From positions 486 to 64,485 of the forward strand of contig JAJYJH010000011.1 of assembly GCA_021789695.1 (NCBI GenBank): a stretch of DNA of 64,000 nt, given 5' to 3'. Positions 8,855 to 17,509 of the stretch are shown in pieces (position 1 is the stretch's first letter; every line of letters starts with the position of its first letter). The stretch comes from a bacterium. GTDB taxonomy: Bacteria; Elusimicrobiota; Elusimicrobia; Elusimicrobiales; UBA9959. The notes under the pieces are model-generated. The model saw nothing but the letters and a program-made list of their open reading frames with translations. It was not told where the DNA came from and did not search any database. Position numbers and translations under genes: made by a program.

Positions 8855-10120
8855 TCAGGCCCGGGTCTCTCCTACCCGGGAAGAGCCGCGCGCCGCCGTC
8901 ATCGGGAAGGCCGCCCCCATCCAGCCCAGAGCGAACAGGAAGGCCGTGCCTGGATAGGCGGCGGCCGGCATCGCGCCGGCGGTCCTGGCCAGCGAGACCA
9001 GCGCGGCGGTCAGCCCCTTGGAGAAGCGATAGGTGAAGGCTTCAGCCACCTGCTTTGCGCGGTAGCGGGTGTCGTAGGAGAACGGGATGTACAGCGTCTC
9101 CTTGCTGGCCCTGAAGAGCGAATAATCCAACCCCTTGAACAACAGGAAAGCCAGCGCCGCCATGAAAAGCCGCGGAGACAGCAGCAGGGCGCCAAGCGTG
9201 AGCAGGTGCGCCGCCGGGATGGCCGTCTGGATGCGCCGTATGGAGACGTAGCGCAACAACAGCGGCGTCAGCAGGAACTGCATCGTGAACGAGAATATAT
9301 TCACCTTCATCCAGAACCCGCCGAAGAAGGCGGTGCGCTGGTCCAGCCCCGGGAAAGCGGCCTGCGCCAGCTGCGCGAAGCGCAGTTCCAGCATCGTGGC
9401 CACGACCTGCGTGGCAAAGACGACCAGCGCTATACAAAGTATGGTCCTGTTCTCTTTCAGGATGCTCAGATGCAGATGCCCCTTCCTGCCGTGCGCCTCT
9501 TCGGACGATGGCTTCGGCTCTCCGGCCCTGGCGTAGGCCAGCCAGAAGAGCGCCAGGGCCGGCAGCATCGCCAGGCCAGACATCAGCACGAAGAAATCCG
9601 TATGCAGTAAAACGGCGAAGCGCTCCACCAGCCAGCCGGCTGTCAAAGGACCTATGGCCCCGACGCCGGCCACCGGGCCGTTATAGGCCTTGCCCTCTTC
9701 CTCCCGCAGCGTGCTGTTGATGAACGACCAGTACTGCTCGGCTATAACCACGACGTAGGATTCCTTGAAAACGTAAAGGAGAAAGATCAGCGGCCCCCCC
9801 CCGCCGGCCTTCAGGCCCAGGAAGGCGAGCACGAAGAACGCGGAGCTGGCCAGCATAGAGGCGGCCATCGCTTTTTTGCCGCCTACGGCCGAGAGCAGCC
9901 TGCCGTAGAGGTAAATCAGGAGCGCCATCATGAACGGTACGCAACTCATCGCGTACGGTTTGGCGTCGGCGCCGAAACGGCCTATGAAGATGGACTCCGC
10001 GCTGGAGCGGATGAACTCGTAGCCGCCGAACAGGAAGCCGGCCGAAAGGCCGGCGAACAGCATGGCCAGCGCTACGCGGCGCCCGCGCTCCGTTCTCAGC
10101 GATCCAAGGAATGCTTTCAT
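8855..10120 (-). CDS. Polytopic transporter, MFS-like with resemblance to the TLC/Npt ATP:ADP-antiporter family
   Basis: The 421-aa product has about 12 hydrophobic segments. YVFKESYVVVIAEQYWSFINS resembles the TLC-family motif. The substrate is unknown. Confidence 0.5.
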   Translation of the reverse strand: MKAFLGSLRTERGRRVALAMLFAGLSAGFLFGGYEFIRSSAESIFIGRFGADAKPYAMSCVPFMMALLIYLYGRLLSAVGGKKAMAASMLASSAFFVLAFLGLKAGGGGPLIFLLYVFKESYVVVIAEQYWSFINSTLREEEGKAYNGPVAGVGAIGPLTAGWLVERFAVLLHTDFFVLMSGLAMLPALALFWLAYARAGEPKPSSEEAHGRKGHLHLSILKENRTILCIALVVFATQVVATMLELRFAQLAQAAFPGLDQRTAFFGGFWMKVNIFSFTMQFLLTPLLLRYVSIRRIQTAIPAAHLLTLGALLLSPRLFMAALAFLLFKGLDYSLFRASKETLYIPFSYDTRYRAKQVAEAFTYRFSKGLTAALVSLARTAGAMPAAAYPGTAFLFALGWMGAAFPMTAARGSSRVGETRA

Positions 10121-10573: not shown

Positions 10574-11779
10574 CTAGAGTCTGAAGCTCCCGTTCTCGTA
10601 GATGGTGAGTTTCCGGCCGCTTTTCAGCGTGGCCGTGACCTTCTTGTCCTCGATGTTGATCATGTCCCAGTGTACCGCGGAGTCGTTGTAGCCCAGCCGC
10701 TTCTTGGCTGCCTCGTTAAGCTTGCCAGGGTCTCCGTCGAAGGTGTCGGTATAGGAACTGCCGATGGCGATATGGCAGTTGCCGTATTTCCCGCCGTGGT
10801 TTTCGTCGAACAAGATGTCGGCCATGAACCTGTCTATCTTGGAGAAGCGGCGGTCCGTCAGCGAATACTCGCCCACCTGCGCGGCGCCGCGGTCCGTGGC
10901 GACCACCTTCTTCACGTACTCGCTCCCCTTCTCTGCCGACACCTTGACCGCGCGGCCATTCTTGAACTCAAGGCGTATCTTCTCCACGTAGTTGCCGCCG
11001 CGGAACGTTGGCAGGTTGGCGTAGTAGACGCCCCTGGTGCCGCGCCAGTCCGGCGAGGTAAAGATCTCAAAGCTCGGGATGTTGTGGCCGCTGATGCCGA
11101 GGAACTTGCGCCTCTCGCCCAGTTTCACCTCGAAGTCCATCGAGGCGGACTCGGTGCGTATGGTGTCTATGCCGAGCGCGTTGAGCCACTTCTTTATGGC
11201 CGTGCTCTCCTTGTAGACCTGCGCCCACTTCTTGGCCGGGTCTGGCTCGTTCAGGTAACAGGCCTTGGCGATCTGCGCGGCGTACTCCTTTATGGAGAGG
11301 TTGGCCTGGCGGGCGAGCTCCTCCGTGGGGTAGGTGCACAGCGTCCAAGCAAAAAGCCCCTTCTCTTCGCGCCTGTTGCGTATGTCGAAGAGCGGCTTCT
11401 TGGCTATGGCCACCTGCGACTGCCGCTTGGTGTCGATGTTCTTAAGGTGCGTCAGCGAGGCCGGCGCATGGATGTAGACGTAGCCGTTGAGACCCTCGTA
11501 GAGCGCCTTATCCCAGGCGCCGAGGGCACCACGCTGCTTCTCGTCGGAGTACTTGTAGAAATCGTGCTCTATGCCCGGCGTAGGCAGAAAATTGAAAACC
11601 ACGTTGAAGCCGCGCCGCACCAGGCGGCGGTGCACCAGTTCGCCGAGGTCCTTCGCCTCCAGGTCGCAGCGCACCAGCACGGTCTCGTACTTTTGGTAGG
11701 GCTTGCGGTGAGCCGTGGTCAGGCCCCATACCAGCGCGTCAGCGTATTTCTCTAACTGTCGGGCGGAAAAAACACTCAT
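10574..11779 (-). CDS. Aminopeptidase, M29 (AmpS/PepS/aminopeptidase T) family
   Basis: The 401-aa product resembles thermophilic metalloprotease M29 over its full length (N-terminus LEKYADALV, C-terminus HIAIGSSY...VHWDMI). Confidence 0.8.
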   Translation of the reverse strand: MSVFSARQLEKYADALVWGLTTAHRKPYQKYETVLVRCDLEAKDLGELVHRRLVRRGFNVVFNFLPTPGIEHDFYKYSDEKQRGALGAWDKALYEGLNGYVYIHAPASLTHLKNIDTKRQSQVAIAKKPLFDIRNRREEKGLFAWTLCTYPTEELARQANLSIKEYAAQIAKACYLNEPDPAKKWAQVYKESTAIKKWLNALGIDTIRTESASMDFEVKLGERRKFLGISGHNIPSFEIFTSPDWRGTRGVYYANLPTFRGGNYVEKIRLEFKNGRAVKVSAEKGSEYVKKVVATDRGAAQVGEYSLTDRRFSKIDRFMADILFDENHGGKYGNCHIAIGSSYTDTFDGDPGKLNEAAKKRLGYNDSAVHWDMINIEDKKVTATLKSGRKLTIYENGSFRL

Positions 11780-12345: not shown

Positions 12346-14988
12346 TCAGCCAGCGATCCGTTTGTCTATCACCCGTCGTATCTTGCCGGTGCGCTGCACA
12401 CGCTCTATGGAATTGGGAGCGAGCACCTCTATCTCCGGCTTCTCCAGCCATTTCAGCCGCACGCTCTCGTGCAGGTCTTCGCAGTGCTTCACCAACTCGC
12501 GCCAGAGCAGGTCGCCCAGCTCCCCGGCGCGGGCCAGCGCGGCCTGATCGGCCGTCTCAGCGCGTATGACCAGCGTGTCCCGGTGGCCTTTTTTGCCTAT
12601 GACCACTTGGAAATTGAAGGTCAGGTCAGGCACCTTGCCCAGCGCCTCCTGGATATCGTTGACAAAGAGGTGCGCGCCGCCGACGTGGATGCGGTCGTCG
12701 CAGCGGCCGAGGATCTCTAAAAGCGGCTCCTTGCGGCCGCAGGCGCACGGCTTGTTTATCCAGCGCCCGAGGTCGCCTACGCGGTAGCGGATGATAGGCA
12801 TCAACTTCTTAGAAAGCCCGGTCACGACCAGTTCGCCTATCTCGCCCTTCTTGACCGGCTCCAGCGTGTCCTGGTTCACGAACTCTACGTACTGGCTCAT
12901 CGCGAACAGGTGGTGCTGGCCCTTAACGCAGTGCGGGCACTGGAAGCCCACCACGCCGGCGTCGGCGGTGGCGTAGGCGGCCGAGCGCACCTTCGCGCCG
13001 GGGAAAACGCCTTCAAAGAAGCGCACCATCTCGGTCCCGACGTACTCGCCGCCGTAGAAGATAGTGCGCAGCGGTATCCTGTACTTCCCTTTACCGGCCT
13101 TCACGAACTCGGCCAGCTTCACAAGGAACGATGGCAGGCCGACCACGGCCGTCGTCTGGAAGTCCTGCAGGTAACCGGCGATGTTCTCCACCGGCAGGTT
13201 GCTGCCTACCGGCACCGAGATGGCCTTGGTATAGGAAATGGCTTTTTCTACGGACAGCCAGCTGGACCAGAGGTTGCCGGCCACGAACAGGTTGGCTATA
13301 ACGTCCTTCTCGCCCAGGCCGCAGGCCTCCATGGAGTATGCGAGCATCCGGCAGGTATGGTCGTACTCCTTCTGATCGTAGAAGACGTACTTCGGCTGGC
13401 CGGTGGAGCCGCCGCTGGCGAAGAAGATACCGCGCTGCACCGGGCCGGTCAGCAGGTCCGGGCTGTCAGGCGGGGTGTTCTCCAGCACATGGTGCTTCTC
13501 AAGGAACGGCACGTGCTGGAAGTCCTCCAGCGAAACTATACGGGGCACGTCCTTGAAGTGCCGCTTGTAGAACGGGCTCCTGGAGCGGGCGTAGTCCACC
13601 AGCTCGCTCAGGCGGTCGAGTTGAGAGGGCTTCTCCTCTATGGGCACCCAGTTCACCAGGGACATCATCGGGAAGATGCCGTCGTGCGGCGAGCCGTTGG
13701 CCTCCTCCAGCATCCTGCCCAGCCGCACCACGCGGGCTATGCCGGCGGGCCCGAGCGTTTCCAGCACCTTCCTGCGCTCTATCGAACCGCCTACGCCTAC
13801 GGTCTGGATATAGCCGCGCAGCGGCAGCAGCTGGTCGCGCACCTGTTCCAGAGTCTCTACCGTCTTGACGTAGAGCACGCGGTTCAGGGGTGAGACCCTG
13901 TACGCCGGGTCTTTCTCGTATATGACGGTCCAGGCGGTGGAAGGGGCAGAGCTGGCGTACGACGCGTTCCCCAGGGCCTGGTCCACCCGGGCCAGCTCCC
14001 TGGCCCGGGTTATCTCCACCTGCTCGTCGGGCGAAAGCCGGCCGGGCGGCAACTCCACGGCTAGCCGGGCGAACTCTTTCTTCGCGCGGCCGAGAAAAGA
14101 AGCGGCCAGCTCCGCGTGGCGCTTCGCCGGCGCGACGAAGTAAAGCGTGTGCAGCGAGGAGCAGGCGGCCTGGTCCCACAGCGAGGCGTCCAGCGCCGCG
14201 CGCGCCGCCACATTGTCCATGCCTTCGTGGTCCACGCAGCTTTCGAAGACCACTCCCACGCTGGTCTTCGGGCCGAAACCCTCTACGCGCACGTCTATGG
14301 GCGCGGCCTGCCGGTAGGCCTGCACGGCGTCGTAGCCGCCCCAGACGAACACGGCGTTGACGTACTTCAGCGCGGCCTCCTCGAGCCCTTGGCTGCCGCC
14401 CTTCCAGGAGAGTACGGCCGCTGAACCGGCCAGCAGGCCTTTCGCGTCGGCCTCCTTCAGCGCCTCCATGAACAGGTTGATGAAGTTGGAACCGGAGGAG
14501 GACAGCTTTACGACGTTGACGTTCTTGGTCAGAAAGCCTATGACCATGGAGTCGAGGATGCCGAGGAAGACGTTGCCGGCACCCACGTGCAGCACTACGC
14601 CCTTCGGCATCGCGCGCAAGAGCCCCTCGTAGCCGCGCCTCTCCACGGAGGTCTCCAGCGCGTAAGGCAGGAAGAGTTCCATATTCAGGCGCTTGCTCAA
14701 CGCCTGCCTGTCGAGCAGCTCCGGGATGACCTCGAGGGTGCGGTCTATGACCTCGGGGGAGAAGGAGATCTGTCCCTTCAGGGCCGAGAGGGCGGCCTTG
14801 CGGTACTTCGCGCCTTTTTCGAACAGCTTGCCGGCCCGGGCCAGGGTGTCCACGATGTATTCCCGCGGGGTCCCGCGCAACGGCCCGCAGGCCGCCTGCG
14901 CCCTACGTCCTATCTCCTCTATCTCTGCCGGGGTCCAGGAGGACCTGTCGAGCGCTTCTCCGAAAAGGTAGGTGTTGTGTATCTTCAT
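12346..14988 (-). CDS. Fusion protein: LuxC-like acyl-CoA/acyl-protein reductase (N-terminal half) plus a PaaK/F390-synthetase-like adenylate-forming enzyme (C-terminal half)
   Basis: The N-half carries LHVGAGNVFLGILDSMVIG and WDQAACSS (Cys codon 14161-14163), as in the LuxC/aldehyde-dehydrogenase fold. The C-half carries FFASGGSTGQPKYVFY, an adenylation P-loop, and has PaaK-like length. I place the start at ATG 14986-14988, which forms an ATGA overlap with the upstream stop. The track start at 15015 is a TTG. Confidence 0.75.
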   Translation of the reverse strand: MKIHNTYLFGEALDRSSWTPAEIEEIGRRAQAACGPLRGTPREYIVDTLARAGKLFEKGAKYRKAALSALKGQISFSPEVIDRTLEVIPELLDRQALSKRLNMELFLPYALETSVERRGYEGLLRAMPKGVVLHVGAGNVFLGILDSMVIGFLTKNVNVVKLSSSGSNFINLFMEALKEADAKGLLAGSAAVLSWKGGSQGLEEAALKYVNAVFVWGGYDAVQAYRQAAPIDVRVEGFGPKTSVGVVFESCVDHEGMDNVAARAALDASLWDQAACSSLHTLYFVAPAKRHAELAASFLGRAKKEFARLAVELPPGRLSPDEQVEITRARELARVDQALGNASYASSAPSTAWTVIYEKDPAYRVSPLNRVLYVKTVETLEQVRDQLLPLRGYIQTVGVGGSIERRKVLETLGPAGIARVVRLGRMLEEANGSPHDGIFPMMSLVNWVPIEEKPSQLDRLSELVDYARSRSPFYKRHFKDVPRIVSLEDFQHVPFLEKHHVLENTPPDSPDLLTGPVQRGIFFASGGSTGQPKYVFYDQKEYDHTCRMLAYSMEACGLGEKDVIANLFVAGNLWSSWLSVEKAISYTKAISVPVGSNLPVENIAGYLQDFQTTAVVGLPSFLVKLAEFVKAGKGKYRIPLRTIFYGGEYVGTEMVRFFEGVFPGAKVRSAAYATADAGVVGFQCPHCVKGQHHLFAMSQYVEFVNQDTLEPVKKGEIGELVVTGLSKKLMPIIRYRVGDLGRWINKPCACGRKEPLLEILGRCDDRIHVGGAHLFVNDIQEALGKVPDLTFNFQVVIGKKGHRDTLVIRAETADQAALARAGELGDLLWRELVKHCEDLHESVRLKWLEKPEIEVLAPNSIERVQRTGKIRRVIDKRIAG

Positions 14989-16199
14989 AGCATCGTCGAG
15001 GCCGAGATGGCGCAACCCTTTAGCTTCTTCACTCCGGCCCGGCCTTTTATCTCCAGCACAGGCCCTGGCAGGCCGCAGGAGCAGCGCGCCCGTACCAGCC
15101 CGAAGTCCGAAGACAGGACCGACAGCGAGGGGTAACTGGTCAGGTACGGCGTTAGGAACTGCAGCAGGCCCGGCTTTCCGTAACCAAGCGGCTCGAGAGT
15201 GCCCGGATCCCGCGCTATCACGCGCCCGTAGTTAGGAATATGGAAGTTCCCCAACCGGCAGTCCACATAAGGCACTCCGTGCTCCACCATACCGAACAGG
15301 TCCCGCACGTTGGCGACCGGGACGCCGAGACTGTCGGCGAGTATTCCGCGGTAGACCTTCTTGTCCACCGCCTCGTCGGAGAGCGTCTTCCAGCCCCCGC
15401 CGGTCACCACGCTGCTGCCCGGGTTCAGACGCGGGTAACGCCCGTAGCGTTTCTTAAACTCCTCCGTCAGCTTTAGCGCGAAGGCGGGGAAGCCCACCAG
15501 CCTGACCAGACTCCCCGCCTCTTCGGACTTCTTCAGCGCCAGCACCGCGCCGTCGATGTCGAAGTAGAAGTCGTTCTTCTCCCGGCTCCAGCGGAAGGTG
15601 TAGAAGATCTCCCCCTTCTTCGTGAAGCCGGTCAGCAGCTTGTCGGTCCAGGCGGTGCCCAGGTCCCTGGCCACCGCGGGGTCGTAAGTGAAGCAGATGT
15701 AGTCGTGGGCCCGCTGCAGGTCCGTCAGGCCCAGGCCCTCGAAGACCTTCCAAGCCATCCGGCGCACGCGCAACAGCGAGCCCCTGTCCAGTTGTATACG
15801 GCTGCGCTGGCCGGAGGTGCCGCTCGACTTGAGTTCCAGCATTATCCGGGAGGCAGGCAGCGTGTACAGGTCACGCTCCTTCAGCGCGGCGACGAAGATG
15901 AACGGAACGCGGGCCACATCGGCCTCCGCCCTGACCGAGGCCGGCGAAAAACTTTCGGTCCCGTAGAGGGCTTTGAGCACCGGCGCGCGCCGGCCCTGGA
16001 AGTCCAGCGCGGCGCGCATCGCGGCCAGGAAGGCCCGCGAGGTGCGGGGAGAGTATTCGAAAGCGGGCGTCTCGAAGAGCGCGTCCAGCGCGGCGCGGCT
16101 CCCGAGCGGTTTGTAGAAAGGCGGGAGGCGGTCCTCCACTGACAGGTCTGCCACAGGTTGTCTCCTTATGACCAGATGAACGGGGGTCCCGGGCCTCAC
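14985..16199 (-). CDS. LuxE-like acyl-protein synthetase (adenylate-forming)
   Basis: The 404-aa product has an LKSSGTSGQRSRI P-loop and LuxE-like length and layout. The GTG start overlaps the upstream GNAT stop (GTGA at 16196-16199). Confidence 0.7.
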   Translation of the reverse strand: MRPGTPVHLVIRRQPVADLSVEDRLPPFYKPLGSRAALDALFETPAFEYSPRTSRAFLAAMRAALDFQGRRAPVLKALYGTESFSPASVRAEADVARVPFIFVAALKERDLYTLPASRIMLELKSSGTSGQRSRIQLDRGSLLRVRRMAWKVFEGLGLTDLQRAHDYICFTYDPAVARDLGTAWTDKLLTGFTKKGEIFYTFRWSREKNDFYFDIDGAVLALKKSEEAGSLVRLVGFPAFALKLTEEFKKRYGRYPRLNPGSSVVTGGGWKTLSDEAVDKKVYRGILADSLGVPVANVRDLFGMVEHGVPYVDCRLGNFHIPNYGRVIARDPGTLEPLGYGKPGLLQFLTPYLTSYPSLSVLSSDFGLVRARCSCGLPGPVLEIKGRAGVKKLKGCAISASTML

Positions 16200-17413
16200 T
16201 GGGACCGGGGTCCCTCCTGTTTGGCTTCCGTTTGGAAGACCGACTCAATGTAGTTCTCGCGCCAGAGCTTCAGGTATTCGTTAAGGAAATTCTTGTAGAG
16301 CGAGATGATCTTGACGTTGCGGAAGTCCAGCATGTCGAACGTGCGCGAGAACACCACGCAATCGTAGCGCGCCTCCCCCATGCGCTTGGCGCAGGGAAAA
16401 TAAGCGCTCGGAATGTAGCGGGCGTCCAGCGCCTCGCGCTGCAGCTCCGGGGAATAGGCCTCTATGACGACCTCGACGTAGGCCATATTCATGTCGCTGA
16501 CCTTTCGCGCCACGCTCTCCAGCACGACGGCGAAGCTCTTTTCGTTAGTCACGCCCCCGATTATCGCGCTATAGCGGTCCTTGAGGCTGACCGTCAGGTA
16601 GACCTCGGTGCCCTGGTCCGGGGTGATCAGGATCAGGTTGGGCTCATGGAACGGCATCACGATGTGCTCGAAGAAACTGTTGTGTTTCGTCCGCATGTAG
16701 CGGGCCTTGACGAACTCAGGGGCGTCTATCACTTCGAAGTTTAGCAGCGGGATCTTCTTACGGTGGTCGCTATAAGGCCCATTCGCGTCCCTGACCTGCG
16801 GGTCCTCCAATTTAATCTGGCGCCTGACTATTTCGTAGAAGGGGACTATCTCCGGTATGATGACCGGCGTGGCGCGCCGCTGCTGCATGGCGCGCTCGGT
16901 GAAATAGGCGGTCAGGCAGTGCGTCTCGTTGTCCTGCACTTTGTGGGTGTTGGGAAAGATACCGAGCTTAACGAAACCCAGACTCTCGGTCAGCTTCTGC
17001 GGGGCGTAATTGGCGGTGCGAGTGGTGGCGTAGACCAGGTCCACCAGGTTCTTGCCCGACGTGATGTCGTCCAGCACCAGCTTCATCATCGTCTGGGCCA
17101 GGTCCATTTTGCGGAACTCCTGGCTGACCACGGCGCCGAAAGCCTTGGAATTGCGGTACTGCAGGTCCACCTCGTACACCAGGCTACCGACGATGCGTTC
17201 AGCGCACTCCGCGACCATCCAGTAGTAGTCGTCGTCCTCTATCGCGCGGCGCATCTTCTCCCTGTCCATGATTATGGAGATGGGATAGGCCGCGCCGTAG
17301 ACCTCGGCGTAAAGCATCTGTATGCGCCGCATGTCCTGTGTCCTGGCAAGCCGGATGATGACGTCCGGCTTGCCCTCGGTCCTTATCACGTGCTCTATCT
17401 TGTTGTGAGTCAT
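16196..17413 (-). CDS. GNAT-family N-acyltransferase with an additional C-terminal domain of about 230 aa
   Basis: The N-terminal ~170 aa have a GNAT-like layout (IRLARTQDMRRIQMLYAEVYG ... GAVVSQEFRKMDLAQTMM ... ESLGFVKLGIF). The C-terminal half is unassigned and may be a second GNAT-like fold. Confidence 0.65.
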   Translation of the reverse strand: MTHNKIEHVIRTEGKPDVIIRLARTQDMRRIQMLYAEVYGAAYPISIIMDREKMRRAIEDDDYYWMVAECAERIVGSLVYEVDLQYRNSKAFGAVVSQEFRKMDLAQTMMKLVLDDITSGKNLVDLVYATTRTANYAPQKLTESLGFVKLGIFPNTHKVQDNETHCLTAYFTERAMQQRRATPVIIPEIVPFYEIVRRQIKLEDPQVRDANGPYSDHRKKIPLLNFEVIDAPEFVKARYMRTKHNSFFEHIVMPFHEPNLILITPDQGTEVYLTVSLKDRYSAIIGGVTNEKSFAVVLESVARKVSDMNMAYVEVVIEAYSPELQREALDARYIPSAYFPCAKRMGEARYDCVVFSRTFDMLDFRNVKIISLYKNFLNEYLKLWRENYIESVFQTEAKQEGPRSQ

Positions 17414-17509
17414 ACCTCTAAAATCCTTAATCTCCGGGACGGCCCCTCGCTATAATATAGTAAAATTGGACGGGCGTTGGTAATGACCCATGTCAGACTG
17501 GGATACCAG

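Follow-up and report, generated by a model that had tools for sequence, protein, structure and literature searches.

The LuxC::ligase fusion described here is best read as a didomain enzyme of the LeupB type in a leupeptin-like pathway that dispenses with an NRPS and yields a small amino or peptide aldehyde with an N-acyl group, a reading to which we give a probability of about 0.58. The fusion is encoded in a window (the whole analyzed stretch of 64,000 nucleotides, from contig JAJYJH010000011.1 of assembly GCA_021789695.1) as part of a three-gene operon consisting of a tandem GNAT, a LuxE-like protein, and the fusion itself; judging from their sequences, these three proteins would hold the enzyme set of leupABCD. 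The reading draws on the domains and catalytic residues of the fusion, the absence of a carrier domain, homology to LeupA, LeupB, and LeupC, conserved synteny, and the presence of single copies in the genome.

Architecture of the fusion and its junction

The fusion open reading frame (ORF) (positions 12346 to 14988, minus strand) encodes 880 residues in a single uninterrupted frame. Its translation contains both strings quoted in the original prediction, ...LVNWVPIEEKPSQLDRLSELVDYARSRSPFY... and ...WDQAACSSLHT..., and starts with the ATG at position 14988 (MKIHNTYLFG...), in agreement with the starts of its homologues, while a TTG at position 15015 represents an upstream alternative start. The reductase-first order of the two domains was borne out by Pfam, which places LuxC at residues 43 to 447 and AMP-binding at residues 525 to 724. 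A database search for the same domain order, which had been proposed together with that prediction, matched 352 loci in a one-genome-per-species collection, i.e., the LuxC::ligase fusion is found as one ORF in 352 species genomes spread over many phyla. Among the best 80 of the 352 loci, which again represent many phyla, both halves are covered wherever the contig permits. Furthermore, at least 120 clusters at 90% identity carry the fusion and more than 130 representatives at 50% identity align across both halves. The occurrence of the same single ORF in hundreds of independent genomes rules out a frameshift or an assembly artefact as the origin of the fusion, and the two halves thus belong to one gene.

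The N-terminal half (residues 1 to ~448; positions 13646 to 14988, minus strand) corresponds, according to Pfam and structure matches, to a LuxC-type acyl-thioester reductase of the ALDH fold. The LuxC domain (PF05893) is recognized with an E value of 4e-68, and a Foldseek comparison of this half with LuxC (7xc6_A) gave a TMt of 0.77. The catalytic cysteine, Cys276, sits in the WDQAACSS motif, opposite the DQQAC active-site cysteine of P. phosphoreum LuxC (7xc6_A) in the alignment, and is invariant among 62 homologues, including LeupB of Klebsiella michiganensis.

The C-terminal half (residues ~449 to 880; positions 12346 to 13645, minus strand) is, as its Pfam, PDB, and Foldseek matches indicate, a PaaK-type adenylate-forming ligase. 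The AMP-binding domain (PF00501) is followed by AMP-binding_C_2 (PF14535) at residues 771 to 877, and residues 454 to 877 are covered by NCBIfam PaaK-type models and by PDB chains of the PaaK family. This half contains a P-loop, SGGSTGQPK (Lys533), a hinge residue, Asp739, and an A10 lysine, Lys869, located within RTGKIRRVIDKR; both lysines are invariant in the 62 homologues. In the PDB, this half matches 4r1l (3e-40) and PaaK1/2, and the Foldseek comparison with PaaK1 (2y27) reached a TMt of 0.85. On the basis of this domain content, the fused adenylating half is a complete PaaK-type ligase with its C-terminal subdomain and not a LuxE-like protein.

The two halves meet at a short ordered connection around residues 444 to 460 (VNWVPIEEKPSQLDRLS; positions 13610 to 13660, minus strand). 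Pfam searches with the whole protein and with a 100-residue junction piece returned no PP-binding or other carrier family at E ≤ 10, and nothing but the LuxC tail matched the junction piece at this threshold. The distance between the PHDG motif of LuxC and the P-loop of the ligase is 91 residues in the fusion and ranges from 65 to 127 residues across the 62 homologues, a spacing that is filled by PaaK's own N-terminal segment. In the AlphaFold model of the fusion (pLDDT, 90; pTM, 0.77), a strand at residues 445 to 451 runs directly into a helix at residues 456 to 470, with a pLDDT of ~90 and no helical bundle between them. Profile search, spacing, and this confident model agree, which confirms the predicted absence of a carrier domain and rules out one hidden in the linker. 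The sole ACP of the genome is encoded on another contig. CAR and NRPS terminal reductases require a phosphopantetheinylated T domain and have an SDR-fold R domain (PMC12041015). Like these A-T-R enzymes, the fusion would, in net terms, spend ATP and NAD(P)H to turn a carboxylate into an aldehyde, but it differs from them in having no T domain, a reductase of the ALDH/LuxC fold, and the opposite order, i.e., R then A.

Operon partners and comparison with known systems

A gene encoding a stand-alone LuxE-like acyl-protein synthetase (positions 14985 to 16199, minus strand; Pfam LuxE, 2e-36) lies directly upstream of the fusion in nearly all of the diverse loci, and in the window its stop codon overlaps the start codon of the fusion (ATGA). 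The protein contains a GGGWK catalytic-lysine loop and a C-terminal tail, ...KLKGCAISASTML, and in the alignment the columns of this lysine loop and of the tail cysteine correspond to Lys238 and Cys364 of the 7xc6 LuxE. For LuxE, mutagenesis and cryo-EM show that the GGGWK lysine and the tail cysteine activate the acyl group and carry it to LuxC (PMC9157457; PMC12041015), the tail cysteine being the residue that shuttles the acyl group in the LuxC-LuxE structure (PMC9157457). Among sampled LuxE-like homologues, the tail cysteine is kept across phyla with one exception, and natural LuxE-LuxC-ligase triple fusions retain it as well.

The Lux system was rightly invoked as the relevant precedent. 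The two systems have in common an ALDH-fold reductase with a single catalytic cysteine, a synthetase with the GGGWK lysine and a C-terminal acyl-carrying cysteine, and no phosphopantetheine carrier. However, identity to the Lux proteins is only ~23 to 25%, the LuxC of the window bears an extra fused PaaK-type ligase, and its substrate, unlike that of Lux, is unlikely to be a fatty acid. A Lux system for bioluminescence or fatty-aldehyde production was rejected because the NCBIfam equivalog scores are far under their cut-offs (112 bits versus 750 for LuxC and 88 bits versus 550 for LuxE) and the gene context differs, with neither LuxD nor luciferase surroundings seen in the operon. Since the genome (96% complete) contains a single LuxC, a single LuxE, and a single PaaK-type domain, the stand-alone LuxE most likely works with the reductase of the fusion, one of the two options that had been put forward for it.

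The third gene encodes a 405-residue GNAT protein (positions 16196 to 17413, minus strand; Pfam GNAT families at residues 20 to 163), and its stop codon overlaps the LuxE start codon (GTGA). This 405-residue GNAT accompanies the module in 65 fetched loci. The protein consists of an N-terminal domain of the amino-acid-type N-acetyltransferases, a second alpha/beta domain, and, at the C-terminal end, a long helix (AF2 model pLDDT, 90; pTM, 0.89). Given its two alpha/beta halves, a Fem-type tRNA-dependent peptide-bond former was considered, but the idea was dropped because its matches are ordinary small-molecule N-acetyltransferases, namely phosphinothricin and N-alpha-acetyltransferases in the PDB profile search and small-molecule N-acetyltransferases among the best Foldseek matches. 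Upstream of the GNAT gene, a sigma-70-like match (positions 17454 to 17483, minus strand) that agrees with the consensus at 9 of 12 positions in a consensus scan alone weakly suggests a possible operon promoter.

The leup operon is known from Klebsiella michiganensis/oxytoca, Photorhabdus, and Xenorhabdus (PMC8283571; PMC11480411) and has been described as an MFS protein, a LuxE/PaaK-family protein, an acyl-CoA reductase, a PaaK-family ligase, and a GNAT (preprint 10.64898/2026.08.25.747093; PMC8283571). Using the published leupA primer (PMC8283571), we located the leup locus of K. michiganensis. Its leupB encodes an 802-residue LuxC::AMP-binding fusion, and the published leupB primer maps inside this ORF. 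The window fusion shares 28% identity with LeupB over 708 residues (7e-61), and the LuxE-like protein shares 34% identity with K. michiganensis LeupA. In LeupB as well, the LuxC reductase comes first, the PaaK-type ligase second, no carrier is present, and the A10 lysine is kept (...SGKTPLVIDKRR). The likeness extends to the operon, in which a LuxE-like gene whose product has the tail cysteine lies directly upstream of leupB and a GNAT gene is present. An arrangement first taken to be mechanistically unusual is therefore that of LeupB from the characterized leupeptin operon, and the fusion is an ordinary, little-studied member of a known NRPS-free route to small peptide aldehydes, with the LeupB architecture.

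Two other contexts of lux-type genes had been considered as the closest model and were set aside since leup gave a direct full-length match. In the tetronate branch of O-antigen synthesis of Vibrio cholerae O1, a LuxE domain is reported for RfbN/WbeN of this nonluminous system in a passage of PMC4772473 that cites Morona et al. 1995. When compared by description, this pathway also recruits Lux-type reduction for a small acyl unit, yet it includes an alcohol dehydrogenase and an ACP of its own. The lux genes of flagellin-glycosylation islands in Aeromonas and Enterobacteriaceae (PMC7874193, PMC4875605) were likewise set apart by description, these systems having their own ACP.

The window operon also differs from leup in several respects. 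It has no LeupC-like stand-alone ligase, and the fusion is the sole match to a PaaK-type ligase at E ≤ 1e-20 in the 96% complete genome. No MFS exporter is adjacent to the operon, whereas such exporters flank the module in other phyla. The GNAT comes first in the gene order, and the operon comes from an uncultured bacterium of the Elusimicrobiota. The 405-residue two-domain GNAT resembles the 305-residue LeupD in the N-terminal generic core only (BLASTP E value, 0.003; hhalign, 92%, E value 5e-7), and no match to it turned up when the K. michiganensis genome was searched. As there is neither a second ligase nor an adjacent MFS exporter, the product is not leupeptin itself, and the differences in operon, GNAT, and host suggest that it is probably shorter and different. 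A separate observation concerns an MFS-shaped protein with a weak TLC match, which is encoded 2.2 kb downstream, past two other genes.

Role of the fused ligase half

Leupeptin is Ac-Leu-Leu-argininal and contains two peptide bonds. The leupeptin operon contains two PaaK-type domains, compared to one in the window operon. The leupeptin study by Li et al. 2020 is said to report "discretely expressed ligases," and in the literature searched we found no later descriptions of the individual Leup enzymes. We assigned the steps to LeupA, LeupB, and LeupC from this phrase and from counting bonds; by our own reading, the PaaK-type ligases of the leupeptin pathway would build the peptide, and LuxE and LuxC would reduce it. 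Applied to the window, LuxE most likely feeds the reductase half, and the fused ligase half would then make its acid substrate, an N-acyl amino acid or a dipeptide, with neither CoA nor a carrier. The ligase half shares 31% identity with K. michiganensis LeupC and 32% with the C-terminal half of LeupB, and a tree of ligase domains, with long branches and open forks, does not separate orthology to one from orthology to the other; several "stand-alone" representatives in this tree are fragments of fusions.

Direct amide formation by a PaaK-type fold has parallels. In NatL2, AjiA1, and ClxA, condensation of the adenylate and a nucleophile is direct and involves neither CoA nor a carrier. These enzymes (PDB 6siw, 6wuq, 9s3l) share the PaaK fold with the ligase half (Foldseek TMt, ~0.75), although they are stand-alone proteins that act on aminohydroxybenzoates in benzoxazole pathways, and sequence similarity to them is lower than to true CoA ligases.

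By sequence and by fold, the ligase half is indeed nearer to the true CoA ligases BT_0428 and PaaK1 than to NatL2 or AjiA1. This raises the question of whether free CoA could be the carrier, with the fused half acting as an ordinary acyl-CoA ligase, the acid passing through acyl-AMP, acyl-CoA, and acyl-Cys276 to the aldehyde, and LuxE serving a second substrate or a parallel route. Consecutive enzymes are often fused, and the original account of LuxC presented it as an acyl-CoA reductase (Riendeau et al. 1982, as cited in a passage of PMC4772473). We nevertheless consider this scheme unlikely. It leaves a universally co-located LuxE, with its conserved tail cysteine, without a needed role, and it leaves the leupeptin operon with too few ligases for two peptide bonds. 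In addition, the NCBIfam PaaK equivalog score is far under its cut-off (155 versus 700). Taken over the PaaK equivalogs, the fusion scores 150 to 155 bits against cut-offs of 646 to 700; a phenylacetate-CoA ligase was rejected on these scores and because the context is a GNAT/LuxE operon rather than paa catabolism.

A CoA thioester could also be needed at the other end of the product. Here, the fused ligase would turn an unusual acid into its CoA thioester, the GNAT would acylate an amino acid with it, and LuxE and LuxC would reduce the carboxylate of that amino acid, which predicts an N-acyl amino aldehyde built on one amino acid only. Such a scheme suits a PaaK-like ligase, a GNAT that takes acyl-CoA as its donor and is unlike LeupD outside the generic core, and an operon and genome with a single ligase domain. 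In leupeptin, however, the cap is an acetyl group, for which no ligase is needed, and the fusion is present nonetheless; moreover, the scheme offers no reason for fusing a cap-making ligase to the last enzyme. It appears improbable to us.

The original prediction went further in proposing that the fusion hard-wires a carrier-independent hand-off of the acyl group to the LuxC cysteine. In such an arrangement, the acyl-adenylate of the fused half would be attacked by Cys276 across a fixed interface or passed to the LuxE tail cysteine, so that two adenylating enzymes, the fused half and LuxE, would both load the single LuxC cysteine and give two aldehydes or a doubly reduced product, without CoA or phosphopantetheine. 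The short ordered junction and the pTM of 0.77, which suggests a fixed mutual arrangement of the halves, point in this direction, as do the absence of a carrier and the triple fusions that hold all three units in one chain. However, inspection of the sequence revealed no tail cysteine of the LuxE kind in the fused ligase half, which thus has no thiol-bearing tail, and it is the separate LuxE that keeps the shuttle cysteine. More than 30 Å separates the two active sites of the Lux complex, and the LuxE tail is all that spans this gap (PMC9157457). Compared with the LeupB-type reading, direct transfer from the fused half is less economical and, in our view, very unlikely.

Proposed pathway and its significance

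Returning to the LeupB-type reading, we infer an amide ligase in the fused half and reconstruct the sequence of steps and the likely product as follows. The GNAT would transfer an acyl group from an acyl-CoA, probably acetyl-CoA, to an amino acid and so cap its amino group. The PaaK-type half would then adenylate the carboxylate of this capped amino acid and link it directly to a second amino acid through the amino group of the latter, giving an amide bond without CoA and without a carrier. The resulting acid would be adenylated by the LuxE-like protein, whose own tail cysteine at the C terminus would then hold it as a thioester. This tail would enter the LuxC half and transfer the acyl group to Cys276, where NAD(P)H would reduce the thioester to the aldehyde. 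The "carrier" of such a pathway would be the LuxE tail cysteine, with no phosphopantetheine arm, and the fusion would link the acid-making enzyme to the acid-reducing enzyme in one complex with LuxE.

On this reading, the fusion belongs to a route to peptide aldehydes, i.e., compounds of the protease-inhibitor type, that proceeds without an NRPS and without a carrier protein. Experimental evidence for this NRPS-free route comes only from a few Gammaproteobacteria, and the leup operon has been called narrowly distributed (PMC11480411). The fusion and its LuxE partner are widespread, being found in uncultured Elusimicrobiota, Armatimonadota, Vulcanimicrobiota, Riflebacteria, Muiribacteriota, Wallbacteria, Acidobacteriota, and Geobacteraceae. 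They raise questions of enzymology, i.e., how a tail cysteine would stand in for a phosphopantetheine arm and what part the fused ligase would play, for which the compact three-gene version in the window would be a convenient test system.

Domain layout of the LuxC-ligase fusion

The fusion is encoded by a single open reading frame of 880 codons (12346-14988, minus strand) that begins with an ATG at 14988; a TTG at 15015 is an alternative start that would add nine residues, and homologues begin at MKI(H/Y)N. In Pfam, residues 43-447 match the LuxC acyl-CoA reductase family (E 4e-68), ahead of an AMP-binding core (residues 525-724) and a PaaK-type C-terminal subdomain (residues 771-877). Residues 454-877 are spanned in one stretch by PaaK-type models from NCBIfam and by PaaK-family proteins of known structure. 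According to the original prediction, the reductase comes first and no carrier domain separates the two halves. Both points hold. The sequence strings quoted with the prediction are present in the fusion, and a Pfam search with the whole protein and with a 100-residue piece spanning the junction returned no carrier family at E ≤ 10. The distance from the LuxC PHDG motif to the ligase P-loop is 91 residues (65-127 in 62 homologues), and a stand-alone PaaK-type ligase has about the same number of residues ahead of its own P-loop. An AlphaFold model, computed with an alignment of 62 sequences as input, is confident throughout (mean pLDDT 90, pTM 0.77) and runs from strand 445-451 directly into helix 456-470, without a disordered linker or additional helical bundle. 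The sole PP-binding protein of the genome is encoded on a different contig. Given this spacing, the modelled junction and the location of the PP-binding protein, there is no space for a carrier in the fusion.

The catalytic residues of both halves are in place. Cys276 (WDQAACSS) aligns opposite the active-site cysteine of Photobacterium LuxC (7xc6) and is invariant in 62 sequences. The ligase half has an invariant lysine in its P-loop (K533), an invariant aspartate at the hinge (D739) and an invariant A10 lysine, K869 (RTGKIRRVIDKR). The protein ends seven residues past the A10 motif, and that stretch contains no cysteine. In fold superpositions, the reductase half matched LuxC of 7xc6 with a TM score of 0.77, and the ligase half matched PaaK1 with ATP (0.85) and BT_0428 (0.82). 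The ligase half also carries C684, C687, C748 and C750 (FQCPHC ... PCACGR) on either side of the hinge, three of them nearly invariant in 62 homologues, and a similar CxCG occurs in LuxE-like proteins; these four cysteines may form a structural metal site. Carboxylic acid reductases (CAR) and NRPS A-T-R enzymes combine a T domain with an SDR-fold reductase. The fusion lacks a T domain and its reductase has the ALDH fold, so it is not an enzyme of that kind. Nor is it, by the NCBIfam models, a Lux fatty-acid reductase equivalog.

Operon partners and the leupeptin operon

Three genes joined by stop/start overlaps (GTGA at 16196-16199 and ATGA at 14985-14988) form an operon that ends with the fusion. 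The gene ahead of it (14985-16199, minus strand) encodes a LuxE-like acyl-protein synthetase (Pfam 2e-36) that, when aligned to LuxE, retains the GGGWK loop lysine and a cysteine nine residues before the C terminus (KLKGCAISASTML). Cryo-EM and mutagenesis of LuxC-LuxE showed that this lysine stands in for the missing C-terminal subdomain and that the tail cysteine accepts the acyl group and ferries it about 30 Å into LuxC (PMC9157457; PMC12041015). LuxC, LuxE and PaaK-type domains each occur exactly once in the genome, which is 96% complete, so that the fused LuxC is the only possible reductase partner for the stand-alone LuxE, in agreement with one of the two roles originally proposed for it. 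The first gene (16196-17413, minus strand) encodes a 405-residue GNAT whose N-terminal domain resembles amino-acid and N-alpha acetyltransferases. Its residues 250-400 form a second, well-predicted alpha/beta domain with a 30-residue terminal helix and invariant P254, P258, Y312, E314, P335, Y338, P340 and D351; this region had no family match and has no counterpart in LeupD, the GNAT of the leupeptin operon.

A literature search pointed from the enzyme set of the window operon to the leupeptin operon, which is described as comprising an MFS transporter, a LuxE/PaaK-family protein, an acyl-CoA reductase, a PaaK-family ligase and a GNAT (preprint 10.64898/2026.08.25.747093; PMC8283571). Its genes are named leupA-D in PMC8283571, where coordinates and PCR primers are also given, and we retrieved the Klebsiella michiganensis DSM 25444 locus with the leupA primer as an exact pattern. 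On its minus strand, it encodes an MFS transporter (419 aa), a LuxE-like protein (378 aa), leupB (802 aa; Pfam LuxC 6e-111 plus AMP-binding), a PaaK-like ligase (446 aa) and a GNAT acetyltransferase (305 aa), all assigned by Pfam. The published leupB reverse primer falls 140 nt inside the 802-residue open reading frame and the four-gene span agrees with the published 5.8 kb; leupB is therefore a reductase-first, carrier-less LuxC::ligase fusion, ending in ...SGKTPLVIDKRR. LeupB thus shares the layout of the window fusion, which the original prediction described correctly but which is not unusual. The two fusions have 28% identity over 708 residues (E 7e-61). The window LuxE and LeupA share 34% over 380 residues, tail cysteine included, while the ligase half of the window fusion shares 31% with full-length LeupC and 32% with the core of the corresponding half of LeupB. 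The GNAT match to LeupD is confined to the N-terminal core. The window fusion belongs to the same kind as LeupB, and the operon that encodes it is trimmed. Because this operon, unlike that for leupeptin, lacks LeupC and an adjacent exporter and has a different GNAT architecture, it would probably yield a capped aldehyde that is shorter or different. Two genes separate the operon from its nearest candidate exporter, a polytopic membrane protein of 421 aa (8855-10120, minus strand) whose sole match, to a TLC transporter, is weak.

Distribution and variants of the module

A word-indexed search returned at least 120 clusters that share the three Pfam domains, almost all of them carrying Elusimicrobia names. 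An exhaustive search added over 130 other 50%-identity representatives, which are 800-900 residues long and 27-40% identical across both halves. One conserved peptide pattern gave 352 confirmed loci in a one-genome-per-species collection. The best 80 of these include Elusimicrobiota, Armatimonadota, Vulcanimicrobiota/Xenobia, Riflebacteria, Muiribacteriota and Wallbacteria, as well as Acidobacteria, Geobacteraceae, other Deltaproteobacteria and Hyphomicrobiales. In the window's own family, 19 of 21 genomes have a match, full-length in all but one, which lies at a contig end; about 32 of 301 sampled genomes of the phylum carry the fusion, none with internal stops. The same two-half frame across independent genomes rules out a frameshift or assembly artefact, and the prediction that the halves form one gene was correct.

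In nearly every locus fetched from distant phyla, the gene just upstream of the fusion encodes a LuxE homologue, and the 405-residue GNAT was found in 65 fetched loci. Across phyla, the LuxE tail GR(A/G)G...K(G)CA(I/L)xA is kept in the sampled loci with a single exception (L086 6841-8001), whose predicted C terminus lacks the cysteine, which may be due to a change of frame where this gene and the following one overlap. Two natural LuxE-LuxC-PaaK-type ligase triple fusions, a 1276-residue metagenomic protein (P0184; L084 3159-6989) and a 1314-residue Armatimonadetes frame (L067 5089-9030), both retain the tail cysteine, here in an internal loop that leads into a Pro/Gly/Ser-rich spacer of 25-40 residues. 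In one distant locus (L084 1684-3162), the GNAT of the module is fused to an anti-sigma-kinase-like HATPase_c_2 domain. In some phyla, MFS exporters of the 'secretion effector' type lie beside the module. One genome of the window's family (G211) has both the three-gene form and a larger leupeptin-like cluster (L090 4308-13127) comprising a PaaK-like ligase, a 485-aa protein, LuxE, the LuxC::ligase fusion, an MFS exporter and a 382-aa protein; the 485-aa and 382-aa proteins had no Pfam match, and a large PAS/GAF hybrid histidine kinase precedes the cluster. An M29 (AmpS/PepS-type) aminopeptidase gene lies downstream of the window operon (10574-11779, minus strand). Three further Elusimicrobia loci (L059, L062 and L068) also have it after the fusion, which may be plain synteny or a tie to peptide supply or processing.

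Proposed route to a capped aldehyde

Making leupeptin, which is acetyl-Leu-Leu-argininal, takes a single N-acetylation, the formation of two peptide bonds and the reduction of one carboxylate. The leup operon supplies a single GNAT, two PaaK-type ligase domains and a single LuxE/LuxC pair. Li et al. (2020) reportedly describe assembly of the compound by separately expressed ligases together with accessory enzymes. In the simplest assignment, the PaaK-type domains form the amide bonds, and LuxE and LuxC reduce the finished acid. Fold matches to the window ligase half include NatL2, AjiA1 and ClxA, members of the PaaK structural family that condense the adenylate directly with a nucleophile. By analogy, in the window operon with its single ligase domain, the GNAT would cap an amino acid, which the fused ligase half would join to a second one; LuxE would adenylate the product and load it onto its tail cysteine, and the tail would bring the acyl group to Cys276, from which the aldehyde would be released with NAD(P)H. 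The tail of LuxE would then be the 'carrier' that the original prediction overlooked. That prediction had the adenylate pass straight to Cys276, which could occur but would make the conserved tail cysteine of LuxE dispensable. The same objection applies if the fused half is a plain CoA ligase, which could feed LuxC through free acyl-CoA; CoA ligases are its nearest relatives and LuxC accepts acyl-CoA. The fused half could also make an unusual acyl-CoA for the GNAT. We give the leupeptin-type sequence of steps, taken as a whole, a probability of about 0.6; membership in the leupeptin-type family is much firmer than this assignment of steps. On this reading, the fusion would hold acid synthesis and acid reduction together in a single complex with LuxE. 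Of interest are the enzymology of the fusion and the broad, apparently unpublished distribution of the cassette across uncultured phyla.
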